A DNA stretch of 64,000 nucleotides from Emiliania huxleyi CCMP1516 (taxonomy: Eukaryota). The notes under the pieces were generated by a model. It ran no database searches. It saw only the letters and a program-made list of their open reading frames with translations, and had not been told where the DNA came from. The translations under genes and the position numbers were made by a program. Location of the stretch: NCBI RefSeq assembly GCF_000372725.1, contig NW_005201192.1, positions 124,001-188,000 of the forward strand. Reading direction: 5' to 3'. Positions 7,100 to 58,446 of this stretch are shown here, piece after piece. Every line of letters starts with the position of its first letter. The stretch's first letter is position 1.

Positions 7100-7495
7100 A
7101 AGCCGCGAGAACAAGGGACCGGCAGGCGGCGGCGTCGCAGGACGAGGCAGAAGAGAACGACGCGACAGAGGAGGAAGTGACAAGGGAGAGACCGACGAGA
7201 GTGGGACGGCCGCGAGGTGGCATGAAGGTTGCAGCGAGAAGCGGCGAGAGACTGCGAAAAGAGATACGAAGAGGCAGACTCCCCAGGGTGGGCGACGGCT
7301 AGCGCACCACACTCCTCTCCTTAAAATCCCTGTGTGGTGGCGGCGTGCCGTTCTCCCATCCCTCCCTTGGGTTGTGTGTTTTCTTTCTTTCTTTCTGCAC
7401 TCCAAGTCCGCTCCAAGTGCCAGTTCAGGTGGAATTCCGAATTTTCGCATCGTGGGATTTCCATCCCTCCCTTGGGTTGTTTTTCTTTCTTTCTT
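7100..7495 (+). mobile_element. Retroposon (LINE/SINE-like) 3' fragment, family A, with (TTTC)n tail and duplicated tail
   Basis: Near-identical to the reverse complement of 28250-28481 and 29384-29500, and to 41671-41722; the copies share one end at the (TTTC)n tail and differ at the 5' end. Confidence 0.7.
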
Positions 7496-17447: not shown

Positions 17448-18668
17448 ATGCTGCGACTTCCCGCAGCCATCCTGCTCGCCCTCACCCCAGCGAGGGCGAC
17501 CCGCCTCCGGCTCGTCAGCTTCAACATCCACGGTTGGCGCGATGCGGACCACACAGACAGGCTCAGCGACCTCATCAAAGCCATCGCAGCCCTTCGGCCC
17601 GACGTGGTCTGCCTGAACGAGGTGCTCTTCCCGTTTGTCGGCCCGCCCAAAGAGGATCCCTACTGGGAGGCTGTGCGCGAGCGGCGCGGCTACCTCCACG
17701 TGCCGCCGGCCGGGAGCAGGCCAGACGAGCGGGACGAAGACAACTATCTGCGGCGGCTCGCTGCCGCGCTGGGCCTGCCGCACATTTGCTTCGGGGCGGC
17801 TGTCGGCACCGACCCAGAGCCGCGCCCGTTTGCGCGCTGCTTCTTTGCGCAGTACCCCTTCGGCAACGCCATCCTCTCGCGCTTCCCTCTCTCCGATGTG
17901 CGTCACTCGCTGCTCTCCGTGTCTCCCGCCGACCTGACGTGCGGCGACCAGCCTCGCACAGACAGCGACTTGGAGCACCGCGCCCTCACCACGGCCCGGC
18001 TGCGGCTGCCGGGAGGCGGGAGCCTCGGCGTCGCTGTCACGCACCTCGACCACAAGGCGGAGGCTCTAACCTTACCCTAACCCTAACCATAACCCTAACC
18101 CTAACCCATACCCTAACCTCGACCACAAGGCGGAGGCTCTGCGAGAGCGGCAGGTCGCCGCCGCCGTCGAGCGATGCGCTGGCGCGTTTGGGTCGCTGCC
18201 GCATGTCCTGTGCGGCGACCTCAACTCTTTCAGCAGGGGAGACATGAGCGCGCGGCAGTGGAGTGAGATCTGCGCGCTGTACGAGAGCCGCGGCTGGGGT
18301 GAGTGAATCGCCATCTCTCGCCCATCTCTCGCCTCTCCCCTCACCGTCTCCCTGCTCGCCGTCTTACTGCTCCTCTCGTCTCACCGTCACGCGGCCGCCC
18401 GGTAGGCTCGCCGCGGCCCGACTCGCTGGTGCGAGCCGTCCTGCACGCCGCCGGCTACTGCGACAGCTTCGGGGCCATCCTCCGACCTGCTGTCCTTCCA
18501 AACGTGCTGCCTCCCCCGACCTGCTGGACGAACACTCGGCTCGACTACGTGCTCCTCTCGCAGGTGGCGGCGGCCGGGGCGGTGCGGGTGACGGCCCACA
18601 AGACGGTGCGGGACTGTGACGTGTCGGACCACTTCCCTGTCTTATGCGAGATTGACATATCGAGATAG
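17448..18668 (+). CDS. Endonuclease/exonuclease/phosphatase (EEP) family protein with signal peptide; exons 17448-18056, 18130-18298, 18406-18668
   Basis: SFNIH, DVVCLNEV, GNAILSRFP, THLD, GDLN, RLDY and SDHFPV motifs; frame restored by two introns. Confidence 0.88.
18066..18118 (+). repeat. Interstitial telomeric repeat (CCCTAA)n, about 8 degenerate units
   Basis: ctaaccttaccctaaccctaaccataaccctaaccctaacccataccctaacc. Confidence 0.9.
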
Positions 18669-21378: not shown

Positions 21379-21465
21379 TTATCCATTGCGCATTGGAATA
21401 TGTGGCTCTTACGAACATACCCATTCAGCTAAAAGTTCACAGTATGACTGTTCTTTTCCAGTGAG

Positions 21466-21585
21466 CAGTGTATGTGGCTCTTACGAACATACCCGTAGGT
21501 GGACTGCTGAGTGCTGACGGGGTTGCGATGAGGAGCGACACCGAAGGGTTTCTCGCTCGGGGTTAGTGCACCACTAACCGCCGAA
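21466..21585 (+). repeat. Family E element, copy 3 (head also duplicated at 21399-21422)
   Basis: Same sequence and same 3' end (CACTAACCGCCGAA) as copy 2. Confidence 0.85.
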
Positions 21586-24538: not shown

Positions 24539-26440
24539 TCAGCCCTCTTCGTCGCCTACGTAGTCGCGCAGCACGAGCGAGACGTGCGGCTTCCTCAGCT
24601 TGCTCAGCGCAGCGAAGAGCACATTTTTCACCCGGTGGAAGGAGAGGCCGAGCGCCTCGCCCACCTCCTTGACCGCCATCGTCTCGCCGCTGCCGCCGAG
24701 ACCGAAGCGCATCTGCACCACCTTCGCCTCCTCCTCGGTGAGGTAACGCGTCATCACGCTCTGCAGGTCGCGCTGCAGCATCGACTGCACCATCTCCGCC
24801 TGCGCCGTCTCGGCGCGCTCGTCGGGCAGGAAATCGCCCACCGTGAGGTCGTCGCCCGACGGAGCGTCGAGCGAGGTTGCCCGCCGGTTGACGAGCTCGA
24901 CCACCTGGCGCACCTTGGCAGGGGGAGGGGCGCGCAGAGGTGTGAGGCGGCGCGCGGGGGGGGGAGGGGAGCCACACTCCTCCGCCGCCGCGCCTTTGCG
25001 GCCGAGATGTCGCCCACGAGCGCCGCCACCTCCTCGTCGGTCGGGTTGAAAGCGGCGCCGGCGCGCAGCTCCTCCTTGGCGCGCACGATCTTTGCGTAGA
25101 CGGTCTGTACGCGCGAGGGCAAGCGGATGGTGCGGCTCTGCTCGCGGATGGTCCGGGTGAGCGCGTTGCGGATCCAGTAGGTAGCCTGTGCGGGGCCCAA
25201 GGGCAGCGGTCGGGAGGAGGGGGAGTGGGCCGTGGCGGGGCGAGGAGGAGAGGGGTTGCATAGGTTGAGAAGCGGAGTCCGAGGGAGACGTCGAACTTCT
25301 CGGCGGCCTTGATGAGGGAGATGGACCCCTCCTGCATCAGGTCCTGCGGCCGGTGCGGTGGCGAGATGTGGGGAGATGTGGGGAGATGTGGGGAGATGTG
25401 GGGAGATGTGGGGAGATGGACCCCTCCTGCGGCCGGTGCGCGGTGGCGAGGTTGGCGGTGGCGAAGCGGCGTCCGTCGGGCGCACGGCGCGAGGGGGGGC
25501 GAGGGGGGCGCGAGGGGGCGGGGGGTGGCGGAGGGGGGAGGCGGCCGAGGGAGGGGGAGGGAGGAGTGTGGGCCACCTGCTCCGTCGTCCCGTGGTCGAT
25601 CCGCCCGCCGCCGCTCCGCTGCAGCGCGCGGATCGCGCTGCGCACCAGACCGGCGTTGCTCGTGATGAGGCGCGCCTCCGCCTCCCGGCCGAGGTCGACC
25701 GCCTCCTGCAGCTCCTCTGGCGACAGGCCCGCCGCCCTCGCCCAAGCCGCCTGATGCCGCGCCGCCGCCACCTCCACGCCGCCTCCGCTCCGCCGCTCTC
25801 CTGCGCCGCCCGCCCGGCTGTGGAGCGACTCCGCCGCCGGCGCCGGCGCCGCCACGGCACCTCGCGTCGCCACGCCAACGGCGACGCCTTCGCTCGAGAG
25901 CGAGAGGCCTCCTCCTCCGCCGCCGCCTCCGCCACCGCCCCCTCCCTGCCGCGAGCCGTGCAGCTCCCCGCCGCCGCTCCACGACACGGGCCACTCGGCG
26001 GCCGCGGCCTGGGCGGACGCCTCGGCGTGGAGCACGTCGCCACGCACCGCCTCGAGCTGGCGCAGCCGCTGCACGCGCTGGCAGAGCTGGATCTCCTCCG
26101 CGTGCTCGAGCAGCCTCGCGCGGCTGGTGCTCGCCACAAAGCCGGTCAGCGCGCTGGGTCGCTTTTGCCCCGTCGGGCGGCGGCGAGGGCGGCCGCGGCC
26201 TCCACGGCCTCGCCCGCCACCGCCGCGTCTCCCGGTGGACGCCCCGCTGCCGCGAGCCGTCCTCTGGCTGTCGGCTGGGGCCGCTGCTCCCGGCGCTGCC
26301 GGTCCTCGGAGGATTACGCACGGCACCCGCCAGCGCCTAGCGACCGCCGCGGGAGCGCCGGTCAGCCCGGGCCGCTGCACTGGAGCGAAGGCCGAACCGG
26401 CTCCGAGGCTGAGCAGGAGGAGGACGGCGGCGGGAGGCAT
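24539..26440 (-). CDS. Nucleus-encoded plastid sigma-70-type RNA polymerase sigma factor, at least 3 introns
   Basis: Bipartite leader (GSAFAP); LLEHAEE, LITSNAGLV, DLMQEGSISLIKAAEKFD..GLRFSTYATYWIR, QSRTIRLP, MRFGL..VGEALG..ALSKLR. Confidence 0.92.
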
Positions 26441-28249: not shown

Positions 28250-30160
28250 AACAAAAGAAAGAAAGAAAACAGACAACACCCAAAGGGGGGGATGGGAGGA
28301 CGACGGCACGCCGCCACCACACACCACACAGGGATTTTAAGGAGAGGGGTGTGATGCGCTAGCCGTCGCCCACCCTCGGGCGTCCGCCTCTTCCTATCTC
28401 TCTTCGCAGTCTCTCGCCGATTCTCGCTGCAACCTTCATGCCACCTCCGGCTCGCGGTCGTCCCACTCTCGTCGTTCTCTCGGAGCACTTGGAGTGCAGT
28501 CGGCAGCCTCACATCCAGGGCCGGGGAGCTAAGAAGCGCACCCAGCGAGCCAGATAAGATCGGGATCGGGTTACGGGCTAGAGAGCCCTTAGCCCTGGGG
28601 GGGTGCGCGTTCGCAGGGAAAGGGCCGTAAAGTAAACACGGTTCTCCGAAGGTTAGTCCGCGCTCCGGGTTTCCCCTAGCTGCGGAGCGCCCCTCTACTC
28701 GGAGCTAATAAACACCAGACACGCACACGACGTACATCCTCACTCTCGTCGACGTCACCCATCAGGGCTTCTCCGTTCGACCTCACCTCCCTCGATCCGG
28801 GGGGGCTCTCCACTCCCGGTCCTCCCCCCCCCTCGCTTTCCGCTGGTTGGGCAACGGATGCGGGGCCCGGCTTCCCCTCTCCTAGCCTTTTTCGGCCGCG
28901 GCCCCGTCGCCGTCTCGTCTTCTCTGCCTGATCCTGTTGACTCCGCCTCCGGCGAGCCCGTGCCCGACTCCCCGGGCGAGGGCGGTGGCGTTGGATCGTG
29001 TCGCCCCCCCTCCCCGGGGGGTCGGGCCGGTTCTCCTCGGTCGACGAATCGCGCCCGCATCCGCGGTCTGCTCTCTCTATCGTCCTCGGCTCGCCCCGAC
29101 GTGGCCCTCCTTGTCGTAGTTCACGGTGGTCTGGCTGTCGCCGCGACGGGTCTACCCCCGGTGAGCTCGTATGCCCCGACTCCACTCGCAGAGGCCGAGT
29201 CAGCTCGACTCTCACCCCCTCCGACAGTTGACTCCAGGTCTCACCCGGGGCCCTCCGGTCTTGGCCTTCCGGTTCGCCGGACGGCCCGCTGTCGTCTCGC
29301 GGCACCTCCCCTCCCTCGGTCCCCTCCGTGTGTAATAATCCAGCCTCCGATGGGGCGGTTCTGGGTTCCCCAAGGTTCGTGAGGGTCTCTCTCTTGTCGC
29401 TTCTTCCTCTGTCGCGTCGCTCTCCTCTGCTTCGTCCTGCAACGGCGCCGCCTGCCGCTCCCTTGCTCTCGCTTCTTCTCCCGCCTTCGTCGCAGCTACG
29501 AGGCGGAAAAGAAAGAAAGAAAACAGACAACCCAAACGAGGGATAGGGGAGGAGGACAGGGTTCCCCACCTGCACGAGCAGGATTTTGGAAGGACGATCA
29601 GGGGGACAGGTGGGCTCTCCTGCTCCTGACAAGGGACACGACAGGCTCGCAGCGCGGTGCACGGTGGGCTCCCAACTCCACTGGCGGTCTCATCTCAGTC
29701 TAGCGACCTTCCTCCGGCTTCTCACCGGCAGTCTCTCACTACCACGGGCACACTGACACCGGGGTAATAAATAAATAATCCGGACACACCAAACAAGGGG
29801 TGGGAGAAGGACAGGGTCCCCACCTGCGCGAGCAGGATCTTGTAAGGACGATCAGGGACACAGGGGAACGGGAGCGGGGAGCGCATCGCGACACGGAGGG
29901 GGGCTGGGCAGGGTTCACCCACACGACAGGGTCCCAGGGATTCCCCTCTCGTATAGGACAAAGTTGCACCCGGCGGCACGGGGGCAGGCGCGGGCCTCCT
30001 ACTGGTTGCGCTCTCCTAGTTCTCCTGCTACTGACAAAAGGGACAGCGACAGGTTCGCAGCACGGTGGACTCCCTATTCCACTGGCGAACTCTCTCGACT
30101 AGCGACCTTCCTCCGGCTTCTCACTAGCAGTCTCTCACTATCACGGGCACACTGACAGAG
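28250..30160 (-). mobile_element. Stack of co-oriented retroposon fragments: family A (28250-29505) interrupted by family C (28482-29383), then two family B copies (29506-29760, 29765-30158)
   Basis: Each unit is homologous to a separate copy in the window (7100-7395, 15365-15741, 43524-43721) and each has a simple-repeat tail. Confidence 0.75.
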
Positions 30161-30386
30161 GCGGCCAAGGCTCACGTCGTGGGTGGCAGAGGCGGTGATA
30201 GGAGTCTCCCACTCTGTGGGATCGCTAGTGGTGCGGCCTACTCGTGTCCTCGCCCTTGCGGTCTTGAGAGGGAAGGGGAAGGGGCTGTGTGTCTGTGTAT
30301 GTGTGTGTGTGCATGTGACACAGGGGTGGGTGTGCGGCGGTTTCTTTCGGCCGTAAGCGGACCATTTGGCGGCCACGTCCAAGGCC

Positions 30387-37172: not shown

Positions 37173-39145
37173 CATAGCGGGTGGGCAAGCCCTAAAACGG
37201 CGGGAGGGGTAGGGCTATATCGATAGAGCTAGAGGGCTCAACCACCCCTCCACCCCTCCACCCTCCACCCCTCCACCCTCCCGGAGCGAGAGGGGTCCGT
37301 CCTCGAGCCCTCCCACTTCCACCCCTCCGACCGGAGGGCTCGCCAGCCCACAGGGCTGGAGGGGTCCCCGTCGGATCGGCGTCGGGAGGGCTCCACAGGG
37401 TCCCATAGGGCTAGCGCGCTGGGAGGGTGGAGCGGTCCACCGGGGAGAGGGGTCAGGAGGGCTGGGCGAGGCGGGAGGGGTGGTGGGGTCCAGGAGGGCT
37501 CGCCGCCCCCCCGAGCTCGGGTGATAGGCAAGAGGGCTCGGGCGCCGGGTGGGCTCGGAGGGACGGTCGGACAAAGGGAGGATCTTCGTGGCGGGAGGGC
37601 TCGAGAGGGGTCGGAAGGGCCTCCGGGAGGGGTCGCAAAAAAAGAATGGCGCGGAGCTTCCGAGAGTGCCCGCCACGAGAGGGCTAGAGGGGTCGGAGGG
37701 GTTTAGAGGGCTGGAGGGCTGCAGGCCTGCTGCCGCCCATGGACGCGGGTCAACCGGCGACGGCGCCCGTGATCGAGGGACCGGCGACGGCGAATGAGCT
37801 GGTCTCTGCGCCGCACGACTTCACCCACGTTCGCGACTGTGGCCATCCAACAGTCTGCCGGCGCGGCGGGCGCATTCGAATGCGCCGGCCGCGCCGGCAG
37901 ACTGCCAGTCCGGGCGGGCCTGCTGCGGCAGGGCGCTGCAACGCCGCCGCCTCGCCGCCACAGCAGCGCCGCCCCCGCATGGCTGCCGCCAGCAATGTCG
38001 CCGCCAGCCGCCGCCCCCAGCCGCCGCCGCCAGCTGCCGCCAGCACTGCAGCGACAGCTCTCTCTGCTGCCCAGGCGCCGCCGCGGCCACGAGTGTCACC
38101 GCCACGAGTGCCGCCGCCGTCAGCGTCGCCATGGCCGCTGCCGCCGCCAGGCGGGCGAGCGAGGAGCTCCATATGAGTGTGTGTCTGGAGGCTGTGGCGC
38201 TTCCGTTTTAGCGGAAACCCCAGGTATTTCGAATACCAAACGCGCTTCGTGTTTGCCTTGAGGAGCGCAGCGACGAGTCCGTAAGGAGCGGCCCCAGCTT
38301 GCTGGGTGCGGCGCCGCCGCGCGCCGTATCGAGAGACTCCGTCGGGGCAGGTTAAAATCGCGCCGCAGGCTGCCCGCACCCCGGGCCGTCCGCGCACAGA
38401 CACCACGGAAACGCCTCATGATGTGTATTGCACCACTTCCGTATGCCTGCAGGTATCTTTAACCGAGCCCTCCGAGCCCTCCACACCCCTCCACACCCCT
38501 CCGACCCCTCCGACCCCTCCGACCCCTCCGACCCCTCCGACCCCTCCGACCCCTCCGACCCCCTCCACACCCCTCCGCGAGCCCTCCAGGCCCCCCGAGC
38601 CCTCCGACCCCTCCGACCCCTCCGACCCCTCCGAGCCCTCCGAGCCCCCCGAGCCCGGCTCGGTGGCTCGCCCCTCCGAGCCCTCCGGGCACTCCATCCC
38701 TCATGAGCCCTCCCGAGCCCTCCCGAGCCCTCCAGCGCCACCCTCGTGCCTCTCTGCCCTCCGAGCCCTCCGAGCCCTCCGAGCTCTCCACCCCTCCCGA
38801 GCCCCACCCCTCGCGCTAGGGACCCTCTTGCCGGACGACACCCTCCGAGCCCTCCAAGCCCCCCGAGCCCTCCAGACCCCTCCAGACCCCTCCATCCGCA
38901 CAGCCCCTCCGGCCCCTCTAGCCCCCTCCGACCCCTCCAGCCCTCTCTAGCCCACTGGACCCCTCCTACGCCTCGCTTTTGGCCAGCCCTCCAAGCCCCC
39001 ACCCCTCCTGGGCCCTGCCGCCTGACACCTCTATCGGTGGAGGGCTTTAGGTCACGGTCCACACTCCCGCCCTCCCGACCCCTCCACACCCCTACAGCGG
39101 CACCCCTACCCCTCCCGCCGTTTTAGGGCTTGCCCACCCGCACTC
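37173..39145. mobile_element. Non-autonomous TIR DNA transposon (~1.97 kb), hAT-like
   Basis: GCGGGTGGGCAAGCCCTAAAACGGCGGGAGGGGTAGGG is perfectly inverted at 37177-37214 and 39104-39141; (C)ATCCTCTC is duplicated on both flanks; inverted CCCTCCGA subterminal arrays. Confidence 0.92.
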
Positions 39146-45308: not shown

Positions 45309-47855
45309 CTACCGGCAGGATCGCGGAAAGCTCAGGGAACGTTCGCGGCCAGCCTGAAACCCGATGCCCGTCGCTGCCGCCGCCGCCGCCTCCGCCTGAG
45401 CGGCCTCGCGCTGCGCTGCCTCCTTGGCGCGGTGCTCCTGCGAGGCGCGGAGAGTCGCGAGGCTTGCATCGAGACACCGCGTCCCGGCCCCTCCCCTTCT
45501 CTTCCGGCGCGCGAGGCGCTCTCGATCGTCTGCCGCGGCCGCGCGCGTCCCTCTGCCGCACTCTCGGCCGCACAGACTTACCGCGTCTCTCTGCCGCACT
45601 CTCTGCCGCACTCTCTGCCGCACTCTCTGGGATGCCTCGCCTTGAGCAGCCTCCGCTCCGCCTCCTCGCGCAGCTGCGTCGGCGACTTCGGCCGGAGCGC
45701 CTCGATCTGCGGCGTCGTGCCGAGCAAGTGGTTCGGCAGCGACTGCGCAGGCTCGTCCTCGAAGCAGCGGCTCTCGTGGGACCCCTCAAAATGCCTTCGG
45801 GAGGGCGGAGACAAGGCTCCGAAGAGGGTCCGAGAGAGGATAGCGGCTCTCGCGGTGCGTGTCGGACTGCCTCGCCCACTCCTCCACCTCGAGGCTCGAC
45901 GAGGAGAGCCCCTTGCCCAGCGTCAGCCAGCCGCGCCGCAAGTTGTGGTCCTCGCCTACGGCCGTTCACAGCACACTCACTCACTGAGGAGCTCGAGTGG
46001 TCGAGTGAGGAAGCAGCCAAGCTGGTCGTCGCCTACGGGCGCAGGTCAGGACTCGGCGCACCGCTGCCGTCCCAGGGCAGGGCAGTGCGAGATATGGGAG
46101 GTATGGGGAGATATGCACCGCTGCCGTCCCAGGGCAGGGCAGTGCGAGATGCGAGCCAAGGGGAAGCGCAAGCGAGGGGGGAGGCGCAAGACGAGGAGAG
46201 GTGCCAAGGCGAGGGGGAGGCGCAGGCGAGGGGGTTCGGTGCAGGGGAAATGGGGGGGGGGAGGGGGGAGAGGGGCGGTGTGAGAAGGGGGCGGCGTCGC
46301 CGAAGAGCTCGAGCCGCCGCCGGCCATTGGAGAAGTGCTCGATGATGGCGTAGAGCTCGGTCGGCTTCTCGGTGGAGCCGTACGGCGGCTCCTAGACTTG
46401 AGCTGGCTCGTCGTCACCCGTTAGAGCGGCCCCCCTCTCGGTGGACCCGCAAGGGGAGCTCCTACGGAGGAAAGCTCCGAGAGGCTTCCGGGGAGCCTCG
46501 CGGCGGCGGCTCCGCCGAGGTGGTTGGCGGCGGCGCCTCGCTCAGCATCACGTGAGATATGGGGAGATATGGGGAGATACGAGGAGATATGGGGAGATAT
46601 GCGGAGATATGCGGAGATATGGGGAGATATGCGGCGCCTCGCTCAGCATCACGTCCGTGTCGACATTAGCGTGGATGATGTGCCTGACAGGGAGGTCGAG
46701 TCGACTCAACCGAGCTGCATGGGTGGGCGCCTGCCGACTCCGGGCTGATTGAGCTCGCTGAGCTGAATGTAGCGAGGGCGTGTGTGTCTGCCGGCGCCCG
46801 GGGGAGAGTGGGCGGCGGGGCGCGGGGAGGGTGCGGGTGCAGGGGGAGGGTGTGGGTGCGCGTGTCGGTGCGCCCGTCGTAGTTGCGGCGGACGGTGCCC
46901 TTGATGCCGACGAGGCAGTGCTCCTGCAGGGAGAGAAGGGAGGGGGAGGAGGGGAAGGGAGAAAAGGGAGAGGGAGAGAGGGGCGGGGTGAGGGCGGGCG
47001 AGGAGACGGGCGGCGGAAGAGGGCGGGCGGCGGAAGAGGGCGGGCGGGGGCGTGGCAGGCTCGCCGTGGTCGGCGTGACGACCGAGTCGGGCAGGAAGTG
47101 CGTGTTGCGGCCGGTCGCGCGGTTCGACTTGACCCACGAGATGTCTTCACACCTGCCGACCCAGGAGATGTCTGAGATGTCACACCTGCAGGCTTGGCCC
47201 ACAGGATGTCTTCACACCTGCCGACAGGTGCAAGGCGCAGTGCTCAGCGGTGCGTGACTGCCCGGCACGGCCTCGCGGGGTGAGAGAGGCGCTCGCGCCG
47301 GCGGAAGCCCCATTTGCGCAGGCAGGCGCGACCCCACTGCAAGGAGACGCCCGAGCCGCTCCAGAGGAAGCAGAACGAGGGCGTCTCGGTGATGGCCTCG
47401 ATCCGCAGGTTCATCACCTCCTGCGGAGTCCACACCTCGTCTTCGTCGCCCTCCATGAGCGCGCCCGCGGCCGCCTTGCGGCGCCGGTACTCCTCCCACG
47501 GCGGGTCGATCAGCACGACGTCAAACTTCGTGCCCAGCTCCGTGAGGTCGAAGGTTCGCAGGTCGACCTGCCGGCACGCCGGCGGCGTCGCCCGCTCGGC
47601 GATGAGCGCGTCCTTGAGGTCGACCAGCTCCTTGAGCTTCGGGTACTCCTGAAAGCGCTCCTCGACATCCGAGTCGCGAATGAAGTTTGCTGGCCTCAAG
47701 CCGGTGTCGACAAAGTGCTGAGCGTAGTCGTTCTTGGCCCGATCAAAGCGTCCGCCCCACCTCCCGCCTCCGCGGCCGCCTTTGCCGCGACCGCGACCGT
47801 AGGGCCCTGGCCTCGAGGAGGAGCCGTGCCCTTGTCGAGGAGACGGACCGCTCAT
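45309..47855 (-). CDS. METTL14: m6A methyltransferase non-catalytic subunit METTL14 (MT-A70), multi-exon; 3' end approximate
   Basis: NDYAQHFVDTGLRPANFIRD, FQEYPKLKEL, DPPWEEY, KWGFRR/CEDISWVK, EHCLVGIKGTVRR, IHANVDTDV, KPTELYAIIEHF..GRRRLELFG. Confidence 0.92.
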
Positions 47856-48010: not shown

Positions 48011-48645
48011 CATAGCGGGTCAGCAAGCCCTAAAACGGCGGGAGGGGTAGGGCTATATCGATAGAGCTAGAGGGCTCAACCACCCCTCCACCCCTCCACC
48101 CTCCACCCCTCCACCCTCCCGGAGCGAGAGGGGTCCGTCCTCGAGCCCTCCCACTTCCACCCCTCCGACCGGAGGGCTCGCCAGCCCACAGGGCTGGAGG
48201 GGTCCCCGTCGGATCGGCGTCGGGAGGGCTCCACAGGGTCCCATAGGGCTAGCGCGCTGGGAGGGTGGAGCGGTCCACCGGGGAGAGGGGTCAGGAGGGC
48301 TGGGCGAGGCGGGAGGGGTTGTGGGGTCCAGGAGGGCTCGCCGCCCCCCCGAGCTCGGGTGATAGGCAAGAGGGCTCGGGCGCCGGGAGGGCTCGGAGGG
48401 ACGGTCGGACAAAGGGAGGATCTTCGTGGCGGGAGGGCTCGAGAGGGGTCGGAAGGGCCTCCGGGAGGGGTCGCAAAAAAAGAATGGCGCGGATCTTCCG
48501 AGAGTGCCCGCCACGAGGCCGAGAGGGCTAGAGGGGTGTGTAGGGCTGGAGGGCTGCAGGCCTGCTGAATCCGCCCATGGACGAGGATCAACCGGTGACG
48601 GCGCCCGTGATCGAGGGACTGGGGACGGCGAATGAGCTGGTCTCT
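48011..48645 (+). mobile_element. Left end of a second copy of the 37173-39145 TIR element; no right end seen in the window
   Basis: Begins CATAGCGGGT; about 630 bp highly similar to 37173-37807. Confidence 0.9.
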
Positions 48646-57587: not shown

Positions 57588-58446
57588 GATGTCGGACGCG
57601 CATAAGGAGAGGAGTCGCTGCAAGGACAGACTGTTTTCTGTGATCATCGCTCGGCTGAGGCGGGCAGCGCGCGGAGCTGGTTGCTGCACACGTCGAGCTC
57701 CTGCAGACCAGCCAGTCAGTCAGCGCCCAGTCCAGAGCGGGGCCTTGGTTCCTTCTTCCGCCGTGACTTTTGAATTGACGCGACCTTCAAGTTATTTGAC
57801 GGAATTACCTCGCATTCATTCAAGAAATTTTCAGTGTACGTACGCACTTTTAGCTTTCTGGGAGAAAAGGGAGAGGGGGTTGTAGCTCTTACTGTGCCGT
57901 ACGAAAGTGTGGAACAGGTTGGAGCAGCAGCTCCTGAGCAGCTAGCTGAGCACGGCGCCGCAGGCGCCTGTTGAATAGGTCCAGGTGATAGCCCTGGATG
58001 GGCAATGCATACGCCTAGTCGAGGAGAGTCTCTGCAGGATGTCAGACGCGGCATCATGTCGGACGCGCATAAGGAGAGGAGTCTCTGCAGGGAGACTGAA
58101 CGGCTGTCGGGCTGAGGCCCCCCTGCACTTCTAAGCTCATCCCTGCTGCTAGAGAGGGGGGGAGGGGGGGGGTCAAGACGTTGATATACCGATTTCTGCT
58201 ACCGTACTGGGACCTCGTAGCGCATTGCACCAAACCAGCCCCTTCACACGTGTACACACAGCGACACGCTCCAGACACGACATCCCTGCCCGCCGCTGCG
58301 CGCTCCCGGCTGCCGTCTGGCGTGTACATCTAAAACGGCTGTCTTCAGCCGCATGCACCCCCCCCCCCCCCCGCACACACGCAGAAAGCAGGAGTTCGAG
58401 CAGGAGTGCAGTGCAAATCTGCGGATACCGCAGTCCTCGTCCGCGC

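Follow-up and report, generated by a model that had tools for sequence, protein, structure and literature searches.

Repeat-filled target duplications at a METTL14 splice donor of Emiliania huxleyi and in marine metagenomes: a probable variant of break-repair intron gain

How new introns arise is an open question. A METTL14 gene of Emiliania huxleyi CCMP1516 poses it in a concrete form: the end of one of its exons is present twice, on either side of an array of 10-nt repeats. The gene lies in a 64,000-nt stretch of contig NW_005201192.1 (positions 124,001 to 188,000; hereafter the window) with a G+C content of 65%. A sequence-only reading of the window had proposed that such arrays do not arise by slippage and are written into breaks by a templated polymerase, either tail-only target-primed reverse transcription (TPRT) or a telomerase-like ribonucleoprotein (RNP). 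Recent surveys, in the portions available, attribute bursts of intron gain to transposon-like introners. The question is how the array arrived at the METTL14 donor and whether the same process makes introns elsewhere.

Duplications and fillers in METTL14 and the window

The host gene, on the minus strand at positions 45578 to 47855, matches METTL14 with an E value of 3.9e-45 (1e-6 for METTL3); six introns are seen in RNA, and the frame is open once spliced. The copies of the duplicated target lie on the same strand at 46631 to 46654 (first in transcript order) and at 46530 to 46553 (second, now intronic); they are identical over 24 nt, and this 24-mer is found only twice in the window. The 77-nt filler between them (46554 to 46630, minus strand) holds 7.7 units of a GGGGAGATRT-type 10-mer, namely four full canonical units, three variants, and a 7-nt partial unit, and its sense strand is the C-rich one. 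RNA contigs of two runs (X11 and X13) join 46390 to 46637, giving a 246-nt intron with GC..AG ends (46392 to 46637, minus strand). Because the intron runs from 46637 to 46392, the duplication takes in the last 17 nt of the exon with the first 7 nt of the intron, and its first copy carries the GC donor in use, with the intron start at 46637. The exact direct repeat, the roughly eight GAGAT units, and the coverage of the METTL14 exon end and GC donor, all described in the sequence-only reading, are borne out. Use of the other copy's donor would lengthen the message by 101 nt and end the METTL14 frame; since the RNA shows the first donor in use, the METTL14 protein is unchanged. The AG/GC in the second copy is predicted to allow the 101-nt unit to be spliced on its own. 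The 246-nt intron is the new 101-nt unit plus an older 145-nt intron.

In each of the six non-RNA runs examined (X8, X9, X2, X3, X4, and X5), one contig crosses the left junction of the array and another crosses the right, none of those listed spanning both flanks alone. Since independent contigs cross each junction in every one of these runs, an assembly artefact is rejected, and the structure is real and common to the runs. One X11 contig ends precisely at 46553, a hint of a second form (an empty allele or the 101-nt unit spliced separately) that, as a contig end only, was kept out of the evidence. The X11 RNA contigs break exactly at 46029 to 46058, a second acceptor-like site, and at 46553, the end of the duplicated copy; these contig ends may reflect stepwise splicing of stacked units. 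Position 46668 is A in the window and G in each of the eight runs examined out of 17, and in the alignment of positions 47301 to 47855 the protein has DPPW where human METTL14 has EPPL.

The next intron of METTL14 holds a second event (46058 to 46150, minus strand), in which an exact 36-nt repeat, with 6 nt of junction homology, surrounds a 21-nt filler. The site is filled in six of six non-RNA runs. In RNA run X11, a contig joins 46057 to 46115, the 36 letters at the joint being assignable to either side, and the insert itself is covered by no X11 contig; the site there has at least one apparent single-copy empty form, with one target copy and no filler, from this one RNA run. This form was considered as a splice product and rejected, because the 36-nt repeat has no AG/GY on the sense strand, and a template-switch artefact is unlikely, because the depth table has no filled-allele contig over the insert in X11. 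The presence/absence polymorphism for which the sequence-only reading had proposed to look may thus be seen once, at this neighbouring array, and not at 46530, where no empty allele was found in the six non-RNA runs; none was seen among the census loci listed below.

Duplications with fillers also occur elsewhere in the window. A 65-nt unit at 47128 to 47225 (minus strand) duplicates a METTL14 acceptor and exon start with 25 of 28 positions identical. A GTGGGGAGAT array at 25316 to 25440 (minus strand) lies within a diverged duplication across the predicted acceptor of a sigma-factor gene. The telomeric intron of like architecture and different repeat mentioned in the earlier reading is real: a telomeric filler with a 25-nt duplication at 18043 to 18140 (plus strand) lies within an exonuclease/phosphatase exon, where an exact 73-nt GC..AG new intron is predicted at 18057 to 18129. 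At the 46530, 46058, 25316, and 18043 sites, the sense strand is the C-rich strand in four of four cases. Stacked older units in the METTL14 introns are significant only at 47153 (25/28) and at the 46530 site; further candidates at 46392 (p = 0.017 and 0.24) and 45956 (p = 0.14) were weak and were set aside.

Several other repeats were observed in the window. Exact duplications of 24 nt (21399 to 21494) and 20 nt (7356 to 7480) surround non-tandem fillers in units of 72 and 105 nt, respectively, without exact splice ends. Two copies of a low-complexity element, each about 450 nt in length, are present (37230 to 37700 and 48050 to 48500), and a long 9-mer array extends over 38463 to 38966. Longer direct repeats, separated by 399 nt (29700 to 30170) and by 467 nt (57589 to 58083), are possibly LTR-like or local duplications.

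Arrays in marine metagenomes and units in exons

The census comprised at least 123 marine metagenome loci, picked by an exact 28-nt match, and the window; long flanks were available for 80. The loci are probably of mixed species, telomeric hexamers being abundant in 35 of 127 sequences and not in the window. A few sites are counted twice, and the spacer of L014 is common to contigs of runs X2 and X5. In total, 214 arrays were called, 158 of them with 80-nt flanks, and a direct repeat was accepted at a score of 10 or more. Among the loci listed, such a repeat was present in the flanks of 116 of the 158 arrays, compared with 3.2% of cross-locus pairs and 23 of 152 sites picked at random within these loci; inverted repeats were found at 6 of 158. 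No gap separates the left copy from the array in 85 of the 116, and the right copy is flush in 61. Under a stricter rule, with Tandem Repeats Finder used for the repeats, counts by family gave a duplication at 88 of 152 GGGGAGAT-type arrays and at 0 of 24 repeats with a period of 1 to 3 (p = 2e-8), again among the loci listed. The corresponding counts were 15/29 for CCGAGAT-type, 6/8 for CTAGG-type, 38/136 for telomere-like, and 8/39 for other 10- to 11-mer arrays, 4/44 for periods of 4 to 6 (all four being telomere-like variants), and 1/55 for other periods of 7 to 14. Across the two counting rules, 58 to 73% of the arrays listed have a flanking repeat.

These counts separate the arrays from microsatellites and minisatellites made by slippage (88/152 versus 0/24 and 1/55), a class that is accordingly rejected. 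The sequence-only reading had named beforehand an outcome that would speak against it, flanking repeats no commoner than around other microsatellites; they proved far commoner, and its statement that the arrays did not grow by slippage holds. We regard it as very likely that each array is an insertion with a target duplication.

Removal of 10 compound sites from 88 clean ones left 78, in which the duplication measures 13 to 42 nt (median, 25 nt) and is exact in 46; in the unit-length analysis, duplications range from 12 to 44 nt without a mode. Two variants of the 10-mer account for 534 of 668 units. Five loci (L093, L105, L107, L110, and L120) carry compound minisatellites in which target and array together form the repeated unit, the product of insertion several times over or of unequal exchange. 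The array pattern had no matches in the viral contig and genome contig collections. Three viral contigs with look-alike arrays, found with a shorter pattern in unrelated context, were treated as coincidence; L001 and L003, viral contigs of 92 to 96 kb, have such a GGAGATATGC array at their end within AT-rich sequence and were judged in the same way.

Among the 78 sites, the C-rich strand allows the filler plus one copy to be excised with GY..AG ends in 49 (23% in simulations), and the G-rich strand does so in 25 (21% expected). At 25 sites, the array-side end has an AG no more than 4 nt away (4.9% expected). Coding potential was classified for 130 loci of four families with a codon model trained on the window genes; the classifier is insensitive, scoring the 46530 and 18043 sites as "neither" and leaving 53 of the 130 loci unclassified. 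Both flanks are coding-like in 28 loci; removal of the filler and one copy restores the frame in 27 of them (p = 2.5e-12), and exact ends are present in 26 (19 GY..AG and 7 GA..AG), against 33% expected. The available part of PMC4028052 gives GA donors as 4% in E. huxleyi. For the GGGGAGAT loci alone, the frame is restored in 17 of 18 and the ends are exact in 16 of 18; among all 74 of these loci, both sides are coding in 18, only the upstream side in 10, and only the downstream side in 15, with 31 unclassified. Two loci scored better on the G-rich strand, and the strand bias that the earlier reading had proposed to check is 28 versus 2. Nontelomeric units with two coding flanks begin at 60 nt and cluster at 66 to 80 nt, and longer duplications tend to go with shorter fillers (rho = -0.44 and -0.37); this floor and this inverse relation are expected from a minimum intron length.

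Homology searches on the predicted exon pairs matched at few places. The unit of L021 falls inside an Fn3-like Pfam match, splitting it between positions 26 and 28 of the profile, and a two-sided Pfam family match was absent in the other 18 of 19 pairs. PDB searches matched both sides for one of three pairs, on different chains, and returned nothing for both pieces of L044 and one piece of L068. The upstream exon of L017 had no match to the LMF protein of the window. Judged from frame and splice ends, the exonic survivors are likely to be new introns of about 70 nt with the C-rich strand as sense. These predicted introns in exons had been missed in the earlier reading.

The writer of the filler

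The reading toward which we lean, by a modest margin over doubt, is that an array is inserted where a staggered break is repaired by copying a few units from existing arrays and that it persists through removal by splicing. We infer the following steps. Nicks 13 to 44 nt apart would leave 3' overhangs, one of which would anneal by a few bases to the C-rich strand of an array and be extended by 30 to 80 nt; the template would most simply be abundant intron RNA, or another genomic array. The new end would then be joined to the other overhang, and fill-in would duplicate the target. Selection would retain intronic events and those in which the duplication spans a donor or acceptor, as at 46530; in exons, an event would be kept if the duplication gives G/GY or G/GA and AG in a unit of about 60 to 70 nt, which would make an exact new intron. 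The array likely persists because splicing removes it, and with copying from arrays under such a filter, the repeat family would propagate via intron sequence. Telomeric fillers would likely be supplied by telomerase to the same type of break.

A doubtful alternative assigns the writing to a dedicated short-template RNP, either telomerase that uses a second RNA or else a telomerase-like reverse transcriptase, that adds the G-rich 10-mer to 3' ends at staggered breaks, with the same splicing filter. In-register microhomology of at least 3 nt at the 5' junction of the G strand, found at 14 of 46 exact sites (4.4% in the null) and at 12 of 32 away from acceptors, would fit it and resembles that at telomerase-made interstitial telomeres (PMC2246262, in the part available). 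The 3' junction has 6 of 46 (3.8% in the null), an asymmetry that is weak as a sign of the primed strand (p = 0.075). Telomeric fillers of the same anatomy (38/136) also fit, as do 11 directly fused pairs of a G-rich and then a C-rich telomeric tract and the GAGAT tracts paired with opposite-strand tracts of another family in the inserts of L041, L056, and L071. The fused telomeric order is what two telomerase-extended ends would give, and selection by splicing could also be its source; two divergent telomeric pairs each have 18 to 21 nt of other sequence between them. Against a dedicated RNP, however, the fused pairs occur in 11 of 200 telomeric and in 0 of 202 GAGAT cases (p = 0.0004), and a template would be needed for each of at least four repeat families and for non-tandem fillers as well; no template RNA turned up in the contig data covered. 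The end phase is spread uniformly over all ten positions, though joining could trim the ends, and start phases and lengths also vary. Variants come in blocks, with neighbouring units alike in 547 of 723 comparisons (50% expected) and a single variant making up the whole of 69 of 151 arrays. Arrays with perfect duplications (purity of 0.63) are no purer than those with diverged ones (0.74), so the variant units probably date from the insertion itself. When repeat pairs were sought without bias, 128 emerged (1 in shuffled sequence). Their filler is GAGAT in 52, telomeric in 20, another tandem repeat in 24, and non-tandem in 32; the non-tandem group shares the anatomy and peaks at 65 to 75 nt (14/32), and its exact excision in 12 of 21 is not clearly over the 40% expected by chance. 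Copying from arrays is favoured over the RNP by the variants in perfect-duplication arrays, the lack of a fixed end phase, and the non-tandem fillers. No less doubtful than the dedicated RNP is the broader proposal that a haptophyte telomerase-like RNP with several nontelomeric templates (GGGGAGATRT, CCGAGAT-type, and CTAGGAAG-type) beside TTAGGG writes G-rich repeats into staggered breaks as the main intron factory, with no transposon.

That the arrays are extremely 5'-truncated LINE or Penelope-like copies, left by TPRT of an element RNA that ends in the repeat, is improbable. The variable, long target duplications and the cleaner left junction (85/116, against 61/116 on the right) do suit non-LTR insertion, and Penelope-like Chlamys elements give very short truncated insertions with a median of 128 bp (PMC9977147, in the part available). 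However, no element body and no longer copies with a shared element 3' end were found beside the arrays among the matches listed for the at least 123 loci, a small sample that gave just dispersed families of 45 to 70 nt, and among exact duplications the right-junction excess is slight (30 versus 37 of 46 flush). Among the same matches, no donor-recipient pair or carried-over flank and no shared read-through sequence at array ends was seen. It is very improbable, and largely refuted, that a tandem duplication came first and that slippage then extended an array, starting at a local seed, to a spliceable length. Tandem duplication of AG/GT-type exon sequence is a proven intron route (PMC3443670, in the section available), junction homology might serve as a seed, and block-wise variants fit slippage; yet the same 10-mer (two variants in 534/668 units) occurs in unrelated targets, 30 of 78 sites lack left homology, the X11 empty allele has one target copy and no filler, and simple microsatellites lack the duplication (0/24).

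The part of the sequence-only reading that held the arrays to be insertions with target duplications and not slippage products is supported by the insertion footprint, the strand bias, the 5' microhomology (14/46 versus 4.4%), and one empty allele, and its choice of a TPRT tail or a telomerase-like RNP as the writer fares less well in view of the uniform end phase, the variants in perfect-duplication arrays, the absence of fused GAGAT pairs (0/202), and the non-tandem fillers of like form. On the junction, variant, non-tandem, and fused-tract data, we read the duplication as a general scar of staggered breaks and the filler as a copy of abundant sequence. In the non-RNA runs the arrays are covered thousands of times more deeply than the flanks, and their depth is high in RNA as well; it is not a copy number.

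Several sequences adjoining or filling the sites were recorded in their own right. Fused tail-to-tail telomeric arrays (G strand and then C strand) are present in L005, L017, L031, L040, L047, L053, L080, L083, and L119, three of them within a single detected duplication. A dispersed element of about 65 to 70 nt ending in CCGCWTCTAG, with 22 hits in 231 kb and intron-like ends, is perhaps a listed E. huxleyi introner family; it occurs in L012, L019, L028, L033, L045, L049, L064, L075, L078, L087, L093, L105, L120, and other loci. Arrays adjoining the predicted acceptor of this element are G-rich on the element's strand, an exception to the strand rule. The motif had been considered as an endonuclease site or as template read-through, and both were rejected because it is the end of this separate element. 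A short non-tandem family of about 45 nt, TGTGAAC...TTCAC...CTGTGAAC, is found in L004, L006, L014, L054, L081, and L111, and in L014, L054, and L081 it is the filler between duplications of 30 to 33 nt. AT-rich TTAA-type fillers lie between duplications of 23 to 32 nt, in units of 72 to 77 nt, at L070:895, L070:1587, and L099:149, in DNA of about 66% G+C.

Comparison with known routes of intron gain

The E. huxleyi genome reportedly contains stranded 10- to 11-bp intronic tandem repeats, for which Read et al. in 2013 are said to have proposed a role in exon-junction recognition, with no insertion footprint; these are likely to be the present arrays, with the same strand bias. If the reading given here is true, those repeats would be explained as footprints of intron birth, and introns would have a second genome-scale source, in which long target duplications with repeat fillers are screened by splicing. 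If the telomerase-like RNP were the writer, a repeat-writing reverse transcriptase would make introns genome-wide without a transposon. The class may also bear on the GC and GA donors and the heavy intron retention of Emiliania (PMC4028052, in the part available). Since some events are young, with perfect duplications, and at least one empty allele is apparent, strain genomes that already exist allow the model to be tested.

Telomerase-made short interstitial telomeric sequences, as the accessible part of PMC2246262 describes them, share the in-register microhomology at the break, which is present here at 14 of 46 sites against 4.4%. The telomeric fillers fit them directly; the telomere repeat of G. 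huxleyi is TTAGGG (10.1101/2024.05.26.595999, in the part available), which the filler at 18043 to 18140 matches and the GAGAT 10-mer does not. They differ in that a duplication accompanies just 4.6% (rodents) and 16% (primates) of the loci of PMC2246262 and that the text available draws no link to intron birth. Non-LTR and Penelope-like elements (PMC8557442 and PMC9977147) and Replitrons (PMC10288648), in the parts available, have in common with the arrays short insertions and target duplications of variable length, as TPRT would give, whereas no element body, terminus, or enzyme was found for the arrays among the matches listed. PMC8557442 gives a tail of 30 to 40 bp, and the term "TSD" is absent from its available text; haptophytes are absent from the main text of the Penelope paper, as far as it was available, and Replitrons are putative in haptophytes in that of PMC10288648.

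Introners (PMC9860276, 10.1101/2020.10.14.339549, and PMC12130899, each in part) resemble the exonic units in being inserted into exons and recruiting splice sites from the target duplication, and intron creation in exons is likewise predicted here by the restored frame (27/28) and exact ends (26/28). Unlike introners, however, the arrays have no fixed ends, fixed length, or terminal inverted repeats (TIRs; inverted flanks in 6/158), the filler is of low complexity, and the duplication is 13 to 44 nt (12 to 44 nt in the unit-length analysis) rather than 3 to 9 bp. Family similarity does not extend to both boundaries, since the 5' part of the intron is a locus-specific exon copy and phases and lengths vary. 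The available text of PMC9860276 lists five E. huxleyi introner families, two of them of 70 nt, with the target site duplication mostly given as "?". The same large survey dropped low-complexity families as possible microsatellite expansion, so the repeat-filler class would have been filtered from it.

The closest likeness is to intron gain by break repair and tandem duplication (PMC3443670, in the part available), in which direct repeats bound the intron, supply its splice sites, and allow exact excision. Here, too, repeats supplying both donor and acceptor exceed background in sequence prediction (49/78 versus 23% and 26/28 versus 33%). That paper, in the same part, counts five unambiguous intron gains by double-strand break repair, whereas here the repeat accompanies 58 to 73% of arrays, is long (13 to 44 nt), surrounds fillers from a few shared families, and looks genome-wide. 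The full-text literature searched, in the portions available (including PMC2784329, PMC12480563, PMC10290126, and PMC4028052), holds no description of the class, on which Read et al. 2013 and bioRxiv supplements could bear. Repeat-filled duplications are thus real and general and are a probably undescribed variant of break-repair intron gain, operating apparently at a genomic scale in haptophytes.
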